From: a virus
Lineage: Duplodnaviria > Heunggongvirae > Uroviricota > Caudoviricetes
Virus record (IMG/VR): IMGVR_UViG_2548876852_000004
Location: 1-8,279 of that record
DNA length: 8,279 bases
Reading direction: 5' to 3' (one strand)
Made by a program: the position numbers and the translations under genes. Below the pieces are notes generated by a model, which was not told the origin of the DNA, made no database searches, and was given only the letters and a program-made list of their open reading frames with translations. The first letter of the stretch is position 1. Each line of letters begins with the position of its first letter. Shown piece by piece: positions 625-7,760 of the stretch.

Positions 625-1830
625 GTGTAAGTTCACAGAGATATTGCAATTGCCTCCGGATAAGTAAGGGGAGATTGCACTATGCAAATGCAGCATCTGA
701 TGGTTGGCTATCCTAAGTACTACCAAACGGCCGATTATGCGTTGAGGCTTTCAGTGATGGCTGATATAGCAACAATGAGAATGAAGGCTCTGCACTTCTG
801 GGATAAACACGGTATTTCTGCAGCTTCTGAAGCCTTTGGCGTGTCCTGCCGCACGCTTTACTGGTGGCGTCAGTTACTGAACAAGGAAGGACCTGAGGGG
901 CTAATCCCGCACAGTAAGGCACCTCTGGTGCGACGAAAAAAACACTGGCATCCCGATGTGCTGAAAGAGATTCGACGCCTCAGGACAGAGCTGCCGAACC
1001 TCGGTAAAGAGCAGATTTTTGTTCGCCTGAAGCCCTGGTGCGAACAGCGCTATCTGGCCTGTCCGAGTGTTTCCACCATCGGCAGAATGATCGCTGCCGC
1101 ACATGATAAAATGCGGATGATACCTGTGCGTCTGGGATCGCGGGGGAAGGCACTGCTTGTCAAAAAGCGGTCTGCCAAACCCCGCAGGCCAAAGCACTAC
1201 CGCCCGGTAAAGACAGGTGAGCTCATTGGGATGGACGCCATTGAGCTCAGAATGGGCGAACTGCGTCGCTATGTCATCACCATGATCGACGAATGCAGCA
1301 ATTACGCGCTGGCGCTGGCTGTGCCGTCACTCAACAGTGATATCGTCAATCACTTCTTCAGCCGCGCAGCCCGGTTGTTCCCGGTCGGTATCAGCCAGAT
1401 AATCACAGATAACGGAAAAGAGTTCCTGGGAAACTTCGACAAAACGCTGCAGGAAGCCGCTATCAAACACCTCTGGACCTATCCCTACACGCCAAAAATG
1501 AACGCTATCTGTGAACGTTTTAACCGGACGTTAAGAGAGCAGTTTATTGAATTTAATGAGATTTTACTCTTTGAAGATCTGGCGCTATTTAACCAGAAGC
1601 TGGCGGAATATCTGGTGCTGTATAACAGCAAAAGACCCCACAAGGCGCTCGCACTAATGACGCCCGTGGAATATATTTTAAAAGAGAATAAAAATTGCAA
1701 TATGTGGTGGACCCATACATCTCCTTGCCTTTCGGCGCGTAAGAGGCTAACCTACGTTTGTGAAGCATAGATTGGGCCTCAGATTAATGTTAAGCGTCTT
1801 GCAGGACGCGTAATGTTAACTGGGGCTTTT
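625..1830 (+). mobile_element. putative insertion sequence carrying the DDE transposase; boundaries not resolved
   Basis: Single transposase ORF wedged between hok and phage genes. Terminal inverted repeats could not be identified confidently by eye: only a shared TTCACA/TGTGAA motif near 633-638 and 1759-1764. The extent given is approximate. Confidence 0.3.
682..1770 (+). CDS. DDE transposase with N-terminal HTH and rve integrase core (IS481-family-like)
   Basis: 362-aa ORF. N-terminal HTH-like segment (ALHFWDKHGISAASEAFGVSCRTLYWWRQ). Catalytic triad candidates D (GMDAIE), D (ITDNGKEF) and E (NAICERFNRTLREQ), with about 35 residues between the second D and E, followed by KRPHKAL. SD AAGGGGAG sits 8 nt upstream of ATG 682. 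Confidence 0.8.
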   Translation: MQMQHLMVGYPKYYQTADYALRLSVMADIATMRMKALHFWDKHGISAASEAFGVSCRTLYWWRQLLNKEGPEGLIPHSKAPLVRRKKHWHPDVLKEIRRLRTELPNLGKEQIFVRLKPWCEQRYLACPSVSTIGRMIAAAHDKMRMIPVRLGSRGKALLVKKRSAKPRRPKHYRPVKTGELIGMDAIELRMGELRRYVITMIDECSNYALALAVPSLNSDIVNHFFSRAARLFPVGISQIITDNGKEFLGNFDKTLQEAAIKHLWTYPYTPKMNAICERFNRTLREQFIEFNEILLFEDLALFNQKLAEYLVLYNSKRPHKALALMTPVEYILKENKNCNMWWTHTSPCLSARKRLTYVCEA

Positions 1831-2059: not shown

Positions 2060-2168
2060 ATTCCCTCCCTTGGTGTGAATCCCGGCGAACGTTTTTACCC
2101 CCACCGACAAATAACATATACTAGAAAAGCAATAGCTATAGCAACGCCTGCAAATGCATCTGGCCGGC

Positions 2169-2732
2169 TCATTGGTTCTCCCCCTGTGTCGCTTCTACTG
2201 CGATCTGACTGGCGTATTCGTTAATGGTAACGATAAGTTCTTGCTCGGCCTCATCCAGACAACTACCGATACCTCGCCTGTCCACTTCAGAAGCATCGAA
2301 ATCTGCACGAAGCCTGGCGACCTTCAGGATTGCGGACAACACCTCATCAGGGATTGCCGGAGAGTTGGTTGACGTTTCCGAGATTATCCGAAAATTATTG
2401 GTTGACGAACCCTTATTTTCCCGAAAGTTTCCAGCCTGAAGCATGGCGGCGCGGTGACACCAGATAATCCAGCCAAGCGCCATATCCCATGCCATGTATT
2501 CTCTATCGCCATTTTTTGCTCTGCGGCGATCTACAGATTCCCCGAAACGCTTCTCCATAAATAATTCATAGGCTGCCCGTTCATCCGATACTGATGCCAG
2601 TGATGCCAGTGCAATTTTTAATGCGGTAAGCATGTTGTTTTGATCTTCATCGAGTCCGAACGGTATTTCATCCCGTGATGACTCAATTCCGGTAATCGTG
2701 TACTGTAGCCATTCTTTGGTTAATTCAGTCAT
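2169..2732 (-). CDS. hypothetical protein (187 aa), orphan gene with its own upstream region
   Basis: ATG at 2730-2732, stop at 2169-2171. A 126-bp AT-rich gap (2733-2858) separates it from the upstream gene. No recognisable domain motif by eye. Confidence 0.6.
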   Translation of the reverse strand: MTELTKEWLQYTITGIESSRDEIPFGLDEDQNNMLTALKIALASLASVSDERAAYELFMEKRFGESVDRRRAKNGDREYMAWDMALGWIIWCHRAAMLQAGNFRENKGSSTNNFRIISETSTNSPAIPDEVLSAILKVARLRADFDASEVDRRGIGSCLDEAEQELIVTINEYASQIAVEATQGENQ

Positions 2733-2766
2733 TTTTCACTACCGCCCTTTCGGGCGGTCTCCTGAT
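2733..2766 (-). promoter_or_regulatory. 5' UTR stem-loop placed between the SD and the start codon of the 187-aa gene
   Basis: Minus-strand RNA reads ...CAGGAG-ACCGCCC-GAAA-GGGCGGU-AGUGAAAA-AUG. The stem is a perfect 7 bp (plus coords 2741-2747 / 2752-2758) with a GAAA tetraloop. The SD AGGAG (2759-2763) is 26 nt from AUG in linear sequence but about 8 nt if the hairpin folds. No U-tract follows on either strand, so it is not a terminator. Confidence 0.45.
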
Positions 2767-2858
2767 GTTCTGAGGGTGCAGGAATCCCTCCGGTTAAGGA
2801 TTTAATAAAAATCATTTCTGATTTAAATTTTCAGTGTTTAGTTGTTGGTTTATAGCCT

Positions 2859-3170
2859 TTATGCTTCGGCCTTATTTCTCAGCCATACACAAACAGGACC
2901 ATCTTCGGTGTCATGTATCGAACCGATAAACCATCCCTCACCTTCTGGTCGCTCAGGTTCCCATGCTGAAATATCAGGGCCATCTGCGTCCAGATTAAAA
3001 TCATCTTCATCCATACTACGGATAGCCCACTGAAGATTATTTTTCTCCATCCAGGCGTTAAACTCTTCCGTTGAAATATATTCCCGACCATCACAGAATT
3101 TTTCATATTCAGGATGCGTCCAGCAGCCATATTCATTACGTTCCACTGGCATTTCTTTAATTGCGCTCAT
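2859..3170 (-). CDS. hypothetical phage protein (103 aa, acidic)
   Basis: ATG at 3168-3170 is preceded by a G-rich SD (GGGGGGG) and directly follows the upstream gene stop (TAAATG). Part of a run of tightly packed minus-strand genes. Confidence 0.6.
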   Translation of the reverse strand: MSAIKEMPVERNEYGCWTHPEYEKFCDGREYISTEEFNAWMEKNNLQWAIRSMDEDDFNLDADGPDISAWEPERPEGEGWFIGSIHDTEDGPVCVWLRNKAEA

Positions 3171-3951: not shown

Positions 3952-4707
3952 TTACCCGTTATCTCCTGTCGTTATTTTCTGTATGACATCACGATGCTTA
4001 TTAATTTCCCGCAGCGCGGCGCATAAGCGCTCCCACTTCTGAACCTGACCTTTTGCCCGGCGCAGCTCGCGGTTAGCCACATGCAGCGATGGTAAAATCA
4101 GACCATCCGGATGCTTTCTGATGAACGACGACTGTGACTGCACTGTGACCGCCACACTTTCAGTTTTAATTTCTTCCTGTGTTTCCGCTTCCCGGACTGG
4201 TAACGCAGCACCTGCTGGCTGAGGAAAGGCCTTACCATCATTTTTCGTTACCGGCGCGGCTTTCGGATCTGCTGGTAAATTCCCCCCCGACATGCAGTAA
4301 CGAAATTTACCGTTCTGATTAACGCGTGCCAGCCGCCCCGTTGCGGTTACCACCGCCAGCGTGGAAGCAACCTTGCGAGTACTGACGCCGAACTTACCCG
4401 CCAGTTCCTCACACGTTTTAGCACCATCCTGACCGATAAACTCAACCATCATGTCTGCGGTAACTTTTGGAGCGACCTCTTCGGTTACCACATCCGGCGC
4501 TTCAGGTTGTAGTGCCTGCCCTTCGGTTACCCCGGCTTCACCTTCGACAGCCAGAAACCAGGTGTGACCCGTTTTATCAACAACGCCATTTTTTTTGAGT
4601 TCCCACAGTTCGTTAAGAACTTCTTCACGGCTGATATCAAGCCGCGCCGCCAGTTCAACAGAATTGGCTTTTCCCATCGCTTTCAGTGCATGCAATACAG
4701 TTTCCAT
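3952..4707 (-). CDS. hypothetical phage protein (251 aa) with two winged-helix-like segments separated by Pro/Ala/Glu-rich linkers
   Basis: ATG at 4705-4707 is preceded by SD GAGGT (spacer about 9). Two HTH-like segments: N-terminal (SVELAARLDISREEVLNELWELKKNGVV) and central (KTCEELAGKFGVSTRKVASTLAVVTATGRL). Sits immediately downstream of the replication genes. Confidence 0.65.
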   Translation of the reverse strand: METVLHALKAMGKANSVELAARLDISREEVLNELWELKKNGVVDKTGHTWFLAVEGEAGVTEGQALQPEAPDVVTEEVAPKVTADMMVEFIGQDGAKTCEELAGKFGVSTRKVASTLAVVTATGRLARVNQNGKFRYCMSGGNLPADPKAAPVTKNDGKAFPQPAGAALPVREAETQEEIKTESVAVTVQSQSSFIRKHPDGLILPSLHVANRELRRAKGQVQKWERLCAALREINKHRDVIQKITTGDNG

Positions 4708-4732: not shown

Positions 4733-5464
4733 TCACATACCCTGACGTCCAACGTTTGACCGCCAGCTCTCCCAGTTAAAATTCACCCAACGACCACCAT
4801 TCATGGTCATACGGTCCATCACCCGATCTCCGAGGAGTGTGCTCATCGCTGCGTGATTCAGGTTCGTCAGCATTCCGACACTACGCATCGAAGCCGTTCT
4901 GCGGTCGACTATCTGGTTCAGCGTGACCTGCTCGTTGCGCGTATCCCGCTGCATGCCAATTTCATCAAGGACCAGAAGGTCAACTCCACAAAGCTCCTGT
5001 AAAAATTTTTCCCCGGACTGGCCGTTGTCGTAGCCGTCATGCAACACGCTCATGACATCGGACACGGTGACGATAATCACGCTTCTCCCCTTCGCCATCA
5101 GCCGATTGCCAATCGCTGCTGCCAGGTGATTTTTACCGGTACCAGGTTTACCGCTGAACACGAAGTTTGTACATCCGGTCATCAATTCATCGGCAATGGA
5201 TTTCGCCTGGCTCAGAGCATGGCGCTGACCGTCGTTCTGCACCCGGTAGTTCCCGAATGAGCACTTCCTGTGAAGCGGCTGGATGCCCGCACGGTTCAGG
5301 ATTTTTTCAACCCGCACCTGATGATTCAGGCGGTTAATCTCCTCGCTGCGTTTTCGTCCTTCAGCAAGTTGCCATTCCCGCCACTCCTCCACCGTCCGGT
5401 ACGGTGGAACCGCCCCCCTGTGGTGCAAGTCTGCGAATACGTTCAAGAACCCCAACTGCCGCAA
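4733..5464 (-). CDS. DnaC-like replicative helicase loader (AAA+ ATPase, IstB/DnaC family)
   Basis: Walker A GKPGTGKNHLAAAIG and Walker B LLVLDEIG. N-terminal region aligns with the DnaC N-terminus as I recall it (IQPLHRKCSFGNYRV...GQRHALSQAK). First in-frame start is TTG at 5462-5464 with no strong SD, so the exact start is uncertain. Confidence 0.85.
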   Translation of the reverse strand: MRQLGFLNVFADLHHRGAVPPYRTVEEWREWQLAEGRKRSEEINRLNHQVRVEKILNRAGIQPLHRKCSFGNYRVQNDGQRHALSQAKSIADELMTGCTNFVFSGKPGTGKNHLAAAIGNRLMAKGRSVIIVTVSDVMSVLHDGYDNGQSGEKFLQELCGVDLLVLDEIGMQRDTRNEQVTLNQIVDRRTASMRSVGMLTNLNHAAMSTLLGDRVMDRMTMNGGRWVNFNWESWRSNVGRQGM

Positions 5465-5480
5465 TGTTTTTCATGACACG

Positions 5481-6443
5481 TCACCCCCTGAATCCCGGCG
5501 GTATTTCAGTGTCCGGTTCAGAAATGTGATTCACGCAACGCTGCGCGGGCGAACGCCCCAGGCGGATAACCAGTTCATCCCATTTTTCCCGGAGTTTTGC
5601 CGGACTCATGATGTTTTTTACCCAGAACGAATCCCGCTGGAGACGCCCAAACATTTCACAAATTTGTCTGTGAGTTCTGCCATCCAGCATCCGCATTGTC
5701 CGCACGTCATTGGCCCATGCAGTCCAGTTGGGTTCTTTCGGTCTCGTGATCTCGCCATCATCGCTGGCCGCCTGCTCGTAAAGACTCACGATTCGTCCCC
5801 AGATCCACTGTGCGCACACCAAATCTTCCTGACTTCCCCACTGGCGTTTTTTCGCACTGAACACAACCGCGTCAGGGTGTCGGGTTAAAAAATCCTGTTC
5901 AGCCGTCTGCGGGTCCGGTTGCGAAGCGTCCGGACAAGAAGATCTTTTATCTGACGGATCAGGTTTTAATACTGACGGATCGGGGTCAATCATCGCCCCC
6001 CTAATCGGCAGTTTGTTATCAACAGTTGATCCATCAAAATTTGACGGGTCAACCGTTGAGGGGGCAATATTTGACGGGTCAACTGTTAACGGGTCATTTT
6101 TTGCCGGGCTAATTTTTCTTTTCGGTTTATATGACTCACGCGCCGCTGCCGCAGCTGCTTCGAGTTTTTCCACATTAAGCCGATAGATATTGCTTACATT
6201 ACGCCCACCGACCTTACGCTCTTCCTTCGTCAGCCAGCCCTCTTTCGCCAGTTCTGCAATAGCCGATTTCACTGTGGATTCACTTCTTGCACCGATCTGA
6301 CGCCGGATAGTTTCAATGGCAGGCCATGACACGCCCTCGTCATTGCTGTAGTCTGCAAGACGGGCCATAACCGCCACCCTGGATAAGATCATGCCGGTGA
6401 AGGCGCACCCTTCCCAGACAAGACCATGAAGCTTGCTGCTCAT
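5481..6443 (-). CDS. lambda O-like replication initiator
   Basis: C-terminal domain matches the lambda O C-terminus as I recall it (WANDVRTMRMLDGRTHRQICEMFGRLQRDSFWVKNIMSPAKLREKWDEL vs lambda WANDIRLMRERDGRNHRDMCVLFRWACQDNFWSGNVLSPAKLRDKWTQL). N-terminal HTH region and a repeat-containing linker. ATG at 6441-6443 is preceded by GGGGG; the tracked ORF starts at an upstream GTG (6458). Confidence 0.85.
   Translation of the reverse strand: MSSKLHGLVWEGCAFTGMILSRVAVMARLADYSNDEGVSWPAIETIRRQIGARSESTVKSAIAELAKEGWLTKEERKVGGRNVSNIYRLNVEKLEAAAAAARESYKPKRKISPAKNDPLTVDPSNIAPSTVDPSNFDGSTVDNKLPIRGAMIDPDPSVLKPDPSDKRSSCPDASQPDPQTAEQDFLTRHPDAVVFSAKKRQWGSQEDLVCAQWIWGRIVSLYEQAASDDGEITRPKEPNWTAWANDVRTMRMLDGRTHRQICEMFGRLQRDSFWVKNIMSPAKLREKWDELVIRLGRSPAQRCVNHISEPDTEIPPGFRG
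6017..6133. repeat. putative phage replication origin inside the O-like gene: three 11-bp palindromic iterons at 30-bp spacing plus an AT-rich tract
   Basis: TCAACAGTTGA (6019-6029), TCAACCGTTGA (6049-6059) and TCAACTGTTAA (6079-6089), the last two each preceded by TTGACGGG, followed by the AT-rich stretch 6094-6133. On the coding strand they encode repeated TVDPSN peptides, matching lambda's ori-within-O arrangement. Confidence 0.55.
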
Positions 6444-6465
6444 AAAACCCCCGAACACCGTGCTT

Positions 6466-6891
6466 TTAGTGCATCACCACAGCATTCCCTGCCGGGCCGC
6501 CGCGATTCATCTGGTCATACAAAACAACCGCTGACGCAACAAAATCATCGACATCCTTCACCAGCCGATCCCTCCGTTCGACGATCTCACGGTAATATTC
6601 AGAACTGTGGCTGCGCATACGGGCCACCAGCAAAGGCGGCATCGCCTTTTCGATCGCCGGTAACAGAGCCTGCATTTTTTCAACAGCATCAGGGGTGTCT
6701 TTATCCAGCCAACGGAAAATTTTCTGGGTATTACGGGCCAGGGCTTCCGGATGGCTGTCGTCATACAGTTCCGGGAACGTCATTCCCAGCTCGAAATACG
6801 CTTTGGTAATTTTCGCAGCCGGTACTTTTTCGCCGTCCGGATGCGCCCAGACATTCATCGCCATGCGGATGTGTTCATGCTTGATTTTCAT
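6466..6891 (-). CDS. YdaT-like (CII-position) early regulatory protein
   Basis: 140-aa ORF sitting between the Cro-like gene and the O-like gene, the position held by YdaT in Rac-type prophages. ATG at 6889-6891 is preceded by SD GGAG (spacer 8). It overlaps the Cro-like stop by 17 nt. Family assignment is from memory and position. Confidence 0.55.
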   Translation of the reverse strand: MKIKHEHIRMAMNVWAHPDGEKVPAAKITKAYFELGMTFPELYDDSHPEALARNTQKIFRWLDKDTPDAVEKMQALLPAIEKAMPPLLVARMRSHSSEYYREIVERRDRLVKDVDDFVASAVVLYDQMNRGGPAGNAVVMH

Positions 6892-7156
6892 GAATCAAGC
6901 TCCTAGAAAGTGGTTGTGTTAACGTTTTGGTATCTTCCAGCTCGGGCCAAATATTCATCCAATCAAAAGGCCTTAGTTGCTGACGTGTAACTTCACCATT
7001 ACTGGCTCGCTCAATAAGGACACATAACGATGCCCCTAACACTTGACCTTTACTCAATGCCTTTCTTAGATAACCGATGCTGGTACCACACTCGCATGCA
7101 AACATACGCTGTTCATCTGACGAAAGAGAATTGAGAAATATTCTTAATTCTTCCAT
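6875..7156 (-). CDS. Cro-like HTH regulator (YdaS-like)
   Basis: 93-aa ORF divergent from the repressor. HTH-like segment CGTSIGYLRKALSKGQVLGASLCVLIERASNGEV. Consensus SD AAGGAG sits 5 nt upstream of ATG 7154-7156. Confidence 0.7.
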   Translation of the reverse strand: MEELRIFLNSLSSDEQRMFACECGTSIGYLRKALSKGQVLGASLCVLIERASNGEVTRQQLRPFDWMNIWPELEDTKTLTQPLSRSLIHENQA

Positions 7157-7256: not shown

Positions 7257-7676
7257 ATGGACAAATATGAATTTAGACGACAGCAACTCATCAAAATTCG
7301 TGATGAGAAATGCGATGGTAAAGCGGTTAACGTGGCCAGAAAGATCGGGCGCGAGCCTTCTTATGTATCAAGAATGTTGTACCCAGAGGGGAAAAAGGGA
7401 AAAAAACGGATCGCTGATGATATGGTGGAGATTATCGAAGAGTCCTTTGGGTTACCCCGGGGATGGATGGATGGTATCGTTTCATCATCAACGAACACAG
7501 CCTCCAGTTATGAAACAAGGGTTCTAACGCCACGACAACGTATTTTTTTAGATCTCTTAGACGAACTGCCAGAAAGTGAAGCGGATAAATTATTAAAAAC
7601 TCTTGAAGAGAAAAAACAGTATTACAATATGATCTACGAAGAAATCCGTAAAAAGAAAGCACAAAACGCATCATAG
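7257..7676 (+). CDS. CI-like prophage repressor, short form without a peptidase domain (RacR/DicA-type)
   Basis: 139-aa ORF with N-terminal HTH (AVNVARKIGREPSYVSRMLYPEGKK). C-terminal LDELPESEADKLL resembles the DicA C-terminus as I recall it. Divergent from the Cro-like gene and flanked on both sides by the same operator motif. Confidence 0.7.
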   Translation: MDKYEFRRQQLIKIRDEKCDGKAVNVARKIGREPSYVSRMLYPEGKKGKKRIADDMVEIIEESFGLPRGWMDGIVSSSTNTASSYETRVLTPRQRIFLDLLDELPESEADKLLKTLEEKKQYYNMIYEEIRKKKAQNAS

Positions 7677-7718: not shown

Positions 7719-7760
7719 TTACCCATGGGTATTTACTTTTTAAATACCTATGGGTATTCT
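7719..7760 (+). promoter_or_regulatory. OL-like operator pair overlapping a leftward-early-type promoter
   Basis: TTACCCATGGGTAT (7719-7732, core TACCCATGGGTA is a perfect palindrome) and ATACCTATGGGTAT (7744-7757). Overlapping promoter candidate: -35 TTTACT (7732-7737), 17-nt spacer, -10 TATTCT (7755-7760). Same motif as the OR-like sites. Confidence 0.55.

Follow-up and report, generated by a model that had tools for sequence, protein, structure and literature searches.

Ribosome binding sites (RBSs) of the type termed "noncontiguous or split" appear in textbooks as curiosities of a few genes, namely, T4 genes 38 and 25, to which thrS and rpmE were added (PMC7297116). In T4 genes 38 and 25, the effective spacing between the Shine-Dalgarno (SD) sequence and the start codon is reduced from 22 to 5 nt and from 27 to 11 nt, respectively (PMC3014915). 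Destabilizing mutations reduce initiation at the T4 split RBSs (PMC3014915; PMC7297116), and the split arrangement of gene 25 was confirmed using lacZ fusions and DMS probing (PMC3014915). A different kind of intergenic element, PeSL, is found in T4-type phages such as RB49 and phi1; it combines a promoter, a stem-loop, and an SD and mediates the shuffling of ORFans, and its stem-loops are attenuators (PMC2839356).

Here we describe an element of an Escherichia coli lambdoid prophage that, judging from comparisons with related loci, is probably (probability of about 0.6) a split RBS and also a conserved homology patch at mosaic joints. The element lies in an 8,279-nt stretch of DNA (the window; Table 1), which is the early-right (pR) operon of an E. 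coli O157-type lambdoid prophage, carried on the minus strand. Four small ORFs follow the DUF1627 gene, the last of which is a 103-aa gene; next come a 126-nt gap containing the element and then a 187-aa gene. The latter has no assigned function, and its N-terminal part is common to Ead/Ea22/DUF551-type phage proteins. The ATG at 2732 is the earliest possible start of this ORF, with an in-frame stop 3 nt upstream, and the start assigned by PGAP in a near-identical prophage is the same. In that prophage the operon goes on to hokD, DUF968, RusA, and Q, and the element therefore belongs to the accessory, nin-like part of the operon. The 301-nt region around the element matches 884 of 5,426 complete E. 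coli genomes, Stx phages included, at a median of two places per genome and roughly 1,700 places in total.

Table 1. Positions of the element, its neighbors, and other operon features in the window
Feature	Position	Strand	Remarks	Basis
Shine-Dalgarno AGGAG	2759..2763	-	abuts 5' base of stem; anti-SD duplex -7.4 kcal/mol	
Hairpin ACCGCCC-GAAA-GGGCGGU	2741..2758	-	7 bp, GNRA tetraloop	sequence, folds, family conservation
Stem 5' arm	2758-2752	-		sequence
GAAA loop	2751-2748	-		sequence
Stem 3' arm	2747-2741	-		sequence
A-rich spacer AGUGAAAA	2733..2740	-	8 nt, predicted single-stranded, without SD	sequence, SD scan
187-aa gene	2169..2732	-	start ATG 2732-2730	ORF list, annotation of relative
Noncoding leader (context A) AAUCCUUAACCGGAGGGAUUyCUGCACCCUCArAaCAUC	2764..2806	-	conserved, ~45 nt	
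28-codon ORF MIFIKSLTGGIPAPSEHQETARKGGSEK	2729..2815	-	runs through leader and hairpin; TGA overlaps ATG of 187-aa gene (ATGA)	
103-aa gene	2859..3170	-	phrog_1372, function not known; stop 126 nt before ATG of 187-aa gene	
DUF1627	3952-4707	-	operon gene	
DnaC/IstB-like	4733-5464	-	operon gene	
O-like	5481-6458	-	operon gene	
cII-like	6466-6891	-	operon gene	
cro-like	6875-7156	-	operon gene	
IS transposase (rve/IS481-like)	682-1770	+	just beyond 25-codon ORF	

Read directly from the window, the minus strand has the layout CAUC-AGGAG-ACCGCCC-GAAA-GGGCGGU-AGUGAAAA-AUG, followed by ACU GAA. The perfect 7-bp hairpin with a GAAA loop that a preliminary description of this DNA had placed between the SD and the start of the 187-aa gene was confirmed at 2758-2741 on the minus strand. 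From the last G of AGGAG to the A of the AUG there are exactly 26 nt, 8 of which lie outside the stem, in agreement with the earlier proposal that folding would leave about 8 nt between the SD and the AUG. In these features of its layout, the element matches the split RBSs of T4: the SD is more than about 15 nt away in linear sequence, the space between it and the AUG holds the whole of a stable hairpin, and the residual spacing falls within the 5 to 11 nt of the T4 sites.

The suggested likeness to T4 gene 38 held point for point when the T4 sequence was read directly (UAA-GGAG-[AGGGGC-UUCG-GCCCUU]-CUAAAU-AUG; the 49-nt segment folds at -16.7 kcal/mol). In T4 genes 38 and 25, as here, GGAG abuts a GC-rich stem of 6 to 8 bp with a hyperstable tetraloop, followed by a short A/U-rich spacer and the AUG. 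The linear SD-AUG distance of 22 to 27 nt collapses to 5 to 11 nt on folding, the hairpin stability is about -13 to -14 kcal/mol, and the unit stands right after an upstream stop, as it does in one of the two contexts of the present element (context B, below). The loop differs, being UUCG in T4 gene 38 and GAAA (sometimes GGCA) in the present cassette. Furthermore, the T4 units are hosted by T-even phages and serve one gene each, whereas the present unit belongs to temperate lambdoid phages, stands before six or more unrelated genes, and undergoes reassortment; mutagenesis proved function in T4, whereas we infer it here. E. coli thrS and rpmE also have a stable hairpin that interrupts the ribosome binding region without blocking initiation (PMC7297116), but those hairpins are operators bound by the product of their own gene for feedback, and no binder is indicated here. 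In the searchable literature, which leaves subscription-only papers outside, we found neither a match to the sequence nor any account of a split RBS in a lambdoid phage. A split RBS of the T4 gene 38 type that is present in lambdoid phages, portable, and shared by unrelated accessory genes would be new.

Folding of the minus strand, proposed as a check in the preliminary description, was dominated by the hairpin in every fold tried (z = -3.5 for the 51-nt fold and -2.5 for the 101-nt fold). Stem pair probabilities were 0.99 to 1.0, with 0.77 to 0.87 for the outermost pair, in contexts of 121, 201, and 351 nt, and the hairpin in isolation had a stability of -14.1 kcal/mol. A perfect 7-bp stem is by itself unremarkable, and its significance comes from position and recurrence. 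The window contains 12 such stems, compared with 2.9 +/- 2.0 in shuffles; the present hairpin is the sole one with at least six G-C pairs, and 18% of shuffles give one or more stems of that kind.

Several familiar identities were considered for the hairpin and rejected. Neither terminator-like nor promoter-like sites covering it were detected on either strand, nor were promoter-like sites detected in 2733-2858 on the minus strand. No U-run follows the hairpin on either strand, as the preliminary description had also noted in setting aside a terminator, and both an intrinsic terminator and a promoter were rejected on these grounds. A known RNA family was rejected because Rfam covariance models gave no match at 2700-2860 even at an E value of <=10. 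A nut site comprises a boxA (CGCTCTT-like) upstream of a 5-bp boxB stem with a GNRA-like pentaloop and is promoter proximal. The lambda-type nut site was rejected because the present element has a tetraloop, a 7-bp stem, and no boxA-like sequence in the 40 nt upstream; its position, about 4.4 kb into the operon, also speaks against a nut/boxB reading.

The element recurs as a portable cassette. BLAST alignments to other prophages end between the hairpin 3' arm and the ATG, and the genes beyond differ. In a pattern scan of IMG/VR that was anchored upstream of the hairpin, with the hairpin itself left free to vary, the hairpin was present in 127 of 127 instances and, with fuzzy anchors, in 231 of 231. 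More than 220 E. coli/Shigella phage loci carry the unit of GGAG, hairpin, A-rich spacer of 5 to 10 nt, and ATG. Among the 231 instances, the pentamer before the stem was AGGAG (152), GGGAG (55), CGGAG (8), AGGAA (8), GGGAT (6), or AGGAT (2), the 4-nt SD core being retained in every type. The linear SD-to-start distance across the family is 23 to 28 nt, and about 190 of 221 instances have an ATG-initiated ORF that opens 5 to 10 nt past the stem.

At least six unrelated N-terminal families start behind the cassette: MRKFK (DUF7167; spacer of 6 nt), MTTLF/MVTLF/MKHYL (DUF4014; 5 nt), MTELT/MAELT (the 187-aa family; 8 nt), MQEIK/MQDIK (8 nt), MLTLK (7 nt), and MGITK/MEITK (10 nt). The last family has its own GGAG after the hairpin, and bridging is therefore not needed for it. 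All three frames relative to the element are used, and stops lie 0 to 3 nt upstream of the starts for several families; the possibility that the element is an N-terminal extension of the downstream genes was rejected for these reasons. Two unrelated upstream contexts were observed. In context A, the core is preceded by the conserved leader of about 45 nt; in context B, it lies 5 nt after the TAA of another gene and reads ...GATTAATGTC GGGAG GCCGCCCGAAAGGGCGGT AAGAA ATG. Given two unrelated contexts and many downstream genes, the minimal traveling unit is GGAG plus the hairpin, the A-rich spacer, and the ATG. Pairings of upstream context and downstream gene are swapped between phages.

Exchange joints map at the cassette, with homology breaking right at both edges of the core. 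Two same-orientation copies, 0.7 to 1.3 kb apart and bracketing a few small ORFs, were found in 16 loci, and the same was seen in the Stx2a phage ArgO145 (L270), which has been sequenced and is inducible. The ArgO145 copies (770-803 and 1806-1874) lie in the early-left accessory region and precede genes of the DUF7167 and DUF4014 types, the second of which is annotated as "released from the phage upon host infection." The breaks at both core edges and the paired copies around about 1 kb of ORFs, together with a reverse-strand gene block directly 3' of the core in two loci (L258 and L264), favor a DNA-only element, in which the 18-bp palindrome would be a recombination hotspot, a linker, or a target of a phage nuclease or recombinase and would have no RNA function. 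Left unexplained by such an element are the fixed distance of 5 to 10 nt to the start codon, the fixed orientation with respect to transcription, the flanking GGAG, and the absence of another SD for the downstream genes. Ordinary homologous recombination at any RBS cassette that is conserved would account for the joints just as well. We consider a DNA-only role quite unlikely.

The cassette resembles PeSL of the T4-type phages in several respects: both are repeated intergenic stem-loop cassettes ending in an SD and an ATG, flank small ORFs of unassigned function in plastic regions, have joints inside or at the cassette, and occur as same-orientation copies that bracket ORFs (PMC2839356). However, PeSL has a strong sigma-70 promoter, and none was detected for the present cassette; the PeSL stem-loop is a terminator upstream of the SD, whereas the present hairpin stands between the SD and the AUG and has no U-tract.

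In a cross-genus search with the leader, matches were obtained in E. coli and Shigella only, besides two metagenome-assembled genome (MAG) contigs, and the element appears to be confined to phages of E. coli and Shigella. One of the two contigs, a 3-kb Collinsella MAG scaffold (L132), contains the complete leader and hairpin of the E. coli prophage and is probably E. coli phage contamination. The other, from a Nitrospirota MAG (L131), shares only the 20-nt search pattern, and the match looks like chance.

Of the comparative evidence, the relatives that have no hairpin argue most strongly for the upstream GGAG being the SD in use. Twenty DUF4014 genes without the hairpin read AAAGGAG-AGTGAT-ATG/GTG, with a spacing of 6 nt, and a hairpin-less homologue of the 187-aa N terminus reads TAAGGAG-AACTGAT-ATG, with a spacing of 7 nt. 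Without the 18-nt hairpin, the cassette would read GGAG-AGTGAA-ATG or, in the window, AGTGAAAA. Because the hairpin-less relatives have a contiguous GGAG located 6 to 7 nt before the start, the hairpin behaves like a discrete 18-nt insertion into an otherwise ordinary RBS. The arrangement is a specific cassette rather than a general trait of these genomes: among 3,443 distinct ORF starts in related phage DNA (about 2 Mb), 38 sequence variants fitted explicit criteria for a split RBS, 31 of which belonged to the present hairpin family, and the other seven were weak or irregular, one of them being an indel variant of the same hairpin. The same data include a possible additional split RBS with a different hairpin: at about 426 on the minus strand of one locus (L019), GAGG is followed by a 9-bp stem, CAGUAGCGC...GCGCUGCUU (-13.3 kcal/mol), 5 nt, and the ATG of a 76-aa ORF.

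The preliminary description had regarded AGGAG, 26 nt away, as the only good SD. The distance stands, and an SD scan of the spacer found none, but the claim of uniqueness does not stand unreservedly: the hairpin 3' arm contains AGGGCGGU, which would be SD-like if unfolded (predicted anti-SD duplex of -7.1 kcal/mol versus -7.4 kcal/mol for AGGAG) and lies at canonical spacing from the AUG. The typical layout of a sequestering hairpin is a C-rich arm, a loop, a G-rich arm, 5 to 8 nt, and the AUG, and the element shares this layout. These two features suit a silencer, in which AGGGCGGU, 5 to 8 nt from the AUG, would be the real SD, the C-rich 5' arm an anti-SD mimic, and AGGAG a standby or decoy site; accessory, possibly toxic genes would then be kept nearly untranslated unless the hairpin was opened. 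However, GGCGG is mismatched centrally to CCUCC, a hairpin of -14 kcal/mol with a probability of about 1 would almost never leave the 3'-arm SD free, and there is no conserved opener, the read-through ORF being available in only 13 of 113 instances. Nor does a silencer explain why GGAG is conserved directly against the stem in both unrelated contexts, or why the hairpin-less homologues have GGAG at the same relative place. For these reasons, we rank it below the split RBS and regard it as unlikely.

The structure-bridged reading put forward in the preliminary description was contradicted by none of the computational tests and is favored by the comparative evidence, because the unit travels together before at least six unrelated genes with the stem 5 to 10 nt from the ATG, hairpin-less relatives have a contiguous GGAG, T4 gene 38 has the same anatomy, and no terminator is present. 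According to the proposed mechanism, the GC-rich, GNRA-capped hairpin would fold upon transcription and loop out 18 nt; on the 30S subunit, the AUG, 5 to 8 nt past the 3' foot of the hairpin, would then be at normal spacing from the GGAG at the 5' foot. While the hairpin stays folded, the ribosome would bind at the upstream GGAG, and the 187-aa gene would be translated from an SD that lies 26 nt away in the linear sequence. A self-folding hairpin would allow the unit to work regardless of the flanking sequence, and such independence fits its reuse in early operons of E. coli lambdoid phages, where it precedes many unrelated accessory genes. The 22-nt conserved core, together with the leader of about 45 nt in one version, would also act as a homology patch for module exchange, and the cassette may thereby promote recombination.

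The same hairpin is found in another setting. An identical 18-nt sequence, (A/G)CCGCCCGAAAGGGCGGT, occurs in many unrelated environmental phage contigs (L211-L268), usually followed by a T-run; there, it has the sequence features of an ordinary intrinsic terminator, and the use made of the hairpin would depend on its flanks. The cassette family differs from these Rho-independent terminators, of which the identical hairpin forms the stem, in that it has no U-tract on either strand and has a start codon within 5 to 10 nt. Stable GC hairpins without U-tracts are common decay barriers, and the present hairpin is of this type. It could accordingly have a nontranslational RNA role, as a stabilizer or processing barrier (a block to 3' exonucleases or a protective 5' hairpin) or as an RNA polymerase pause site, with initiation largely SD-less from the A-rich spacer and the GGAG incidental. 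The plain terminators with the same 18 nt plus a T-run in unrelated phages point in this direction, as do the attenuator stem-loops of PeSL in T4-type phages (PMC2839356). Against such a role, a sense-strand U-run never follows the hairpin in the cassette family, GGAG is conserved at the hairpin foot in both upstream contexts, and the hairpin, 5 to 10 nt from the start codon, is inside the ribosome footprint, so that initiation must cope with it in any case. A purely nontranslational role thus strikes us as improbable.

In seven loci, no start codon stands behind the cassette. Inspection of two of these, L258 and L264, showed the end of a reverse-strand gene about 11 nt past the hairpin and, in L264, a second reverse-strand ORF beyond that gene. 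The SD side reads ATAAAATCAGGAA in these loci, which places a U-rich run, UUUCCUGAUUUUAU, behind the hairpin on the opposite strand, and the hairpin may therefore have been co-opted as the terminator of the reverse block.

The comparison of covariation across homologues that had been suggested earlier gave a mixed outcome. Among 73 unique sequences, 96.9% of stem cells were paired, but the shuffle controls were not exceeded and there was one double change; the covariation statistics are uninformative because the family is too shallow (94% column identity). Most stem variants are C-to-U changes opposite G, and a ratio test of transition types was not significant. We also performed targeted scans within the family, in which a nonconsensus base was forced on one side of a pair and the partner was left free. 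Pair 5-14 gave 54 U.G and no broken instances, and pair 7-12 gave 60 U.G versus 5 singleton AxG instances. At pair 4-15, uncompensated AxC variants were not rare (23 instances), versus 7 compensated A-U instances. One lineage shows the series G-C to AxC to A-U at this pair, and both states occur on one flanking haplotype, which indicates genuine within-lineage compensation. As support for the stem, this compensation is suggestive but not decisive. The common stem variants are all at or below -9 kcal/mol.

The leader of context A contains a small hairpin of its own, GAGGG (2790-2786) with CCCUC (2776-2772), whose stem is nearly invariant, the commonest change being in the loop. The leader also contains an invariant UCCUUA. 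Pairing is predicted between the AGGA of the SD and either UCCU at 2800-2797 or the loop UUCCU at 2783-2780, and the probability that AGGA is unpaired is only 0.05 to 0.3. These helices are only 3 to 4 bp long, and the leader is absent from context B. A 30S subunit could displace helices of this size, a damping of translation still being possible, and the leader may be a weak anti-SD or other RNA element.

The element is noncoding. In the window, an ORF of 28 codons is open from the ATG at 2815 to the TGA that overlaps the ATG of the 187-aa gene, and this arrangement would permit translational coupling, in which ribosomes on the ORF (2815-2729) would open the hairpin and then start again at the overlapping ATGA. 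However, of 113 related loci, just 13 have an in-frame start for this ORF, and the other 100 have no start in any frame; C7-to-U variants place a TGA in the loop, and the ORF has no SD of its own. A conserved leader ORF with coupling was rejected as a general mechanism because of the rarity of the start codon, and we consider coupling highly improbable as an explanation of the element. The 28-codon ORF is lineage specific and probably fortuitous.

If the split RBS is confirmed, the design would be present in temperate lambdoid phages, where it would be modular, with one cassette serving many genes, and widespread. Gene finders and RBS predictors that score only positions -5 to -15 would label these genes SD-less. 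The cassette would be a natural compact part for context-independent translation initiation, and its position at mosaic joints would offer a concrete, testable case of the "linker sequence" idea in modular phage evolution. A broader proposal, which we offer tentatively as possible rather than probable, is that the 22-nt core with its optional leader of about 45 nt is a portable, self-insulating translation-start "linker" of lambdoid phages. Such a linker would ensure the expression of a recombined accessory gene, would supply homology for insertion, deletion, or swapping, and would be the temperate counterpart of PeSL; extra control might be exerted through the anti-SD tracts of the leader or by a GNRA-recognizing protein.

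Two further features of the window were observed away from the element. The start codon of a hydrophobic 25-codon ORF (MSRPDAFAGVAIAIAFLVYVICRWG; 2095-2172, minus strand) overlaps the 187-aa gene's stop codon as ATGA, and this ORF may encode a small membrane peptide. On the plus strand, a 16-bp near-perfect inverted repeat at 7720-7756, TACCCATGGGTATTTA / TAAATACCTATGGGTA, followed by TTCTTCTTTTC, sits 44 nt past the stop of a repressor-like gene (7257-7676) and looks like the intrinsic terminator of that gene.
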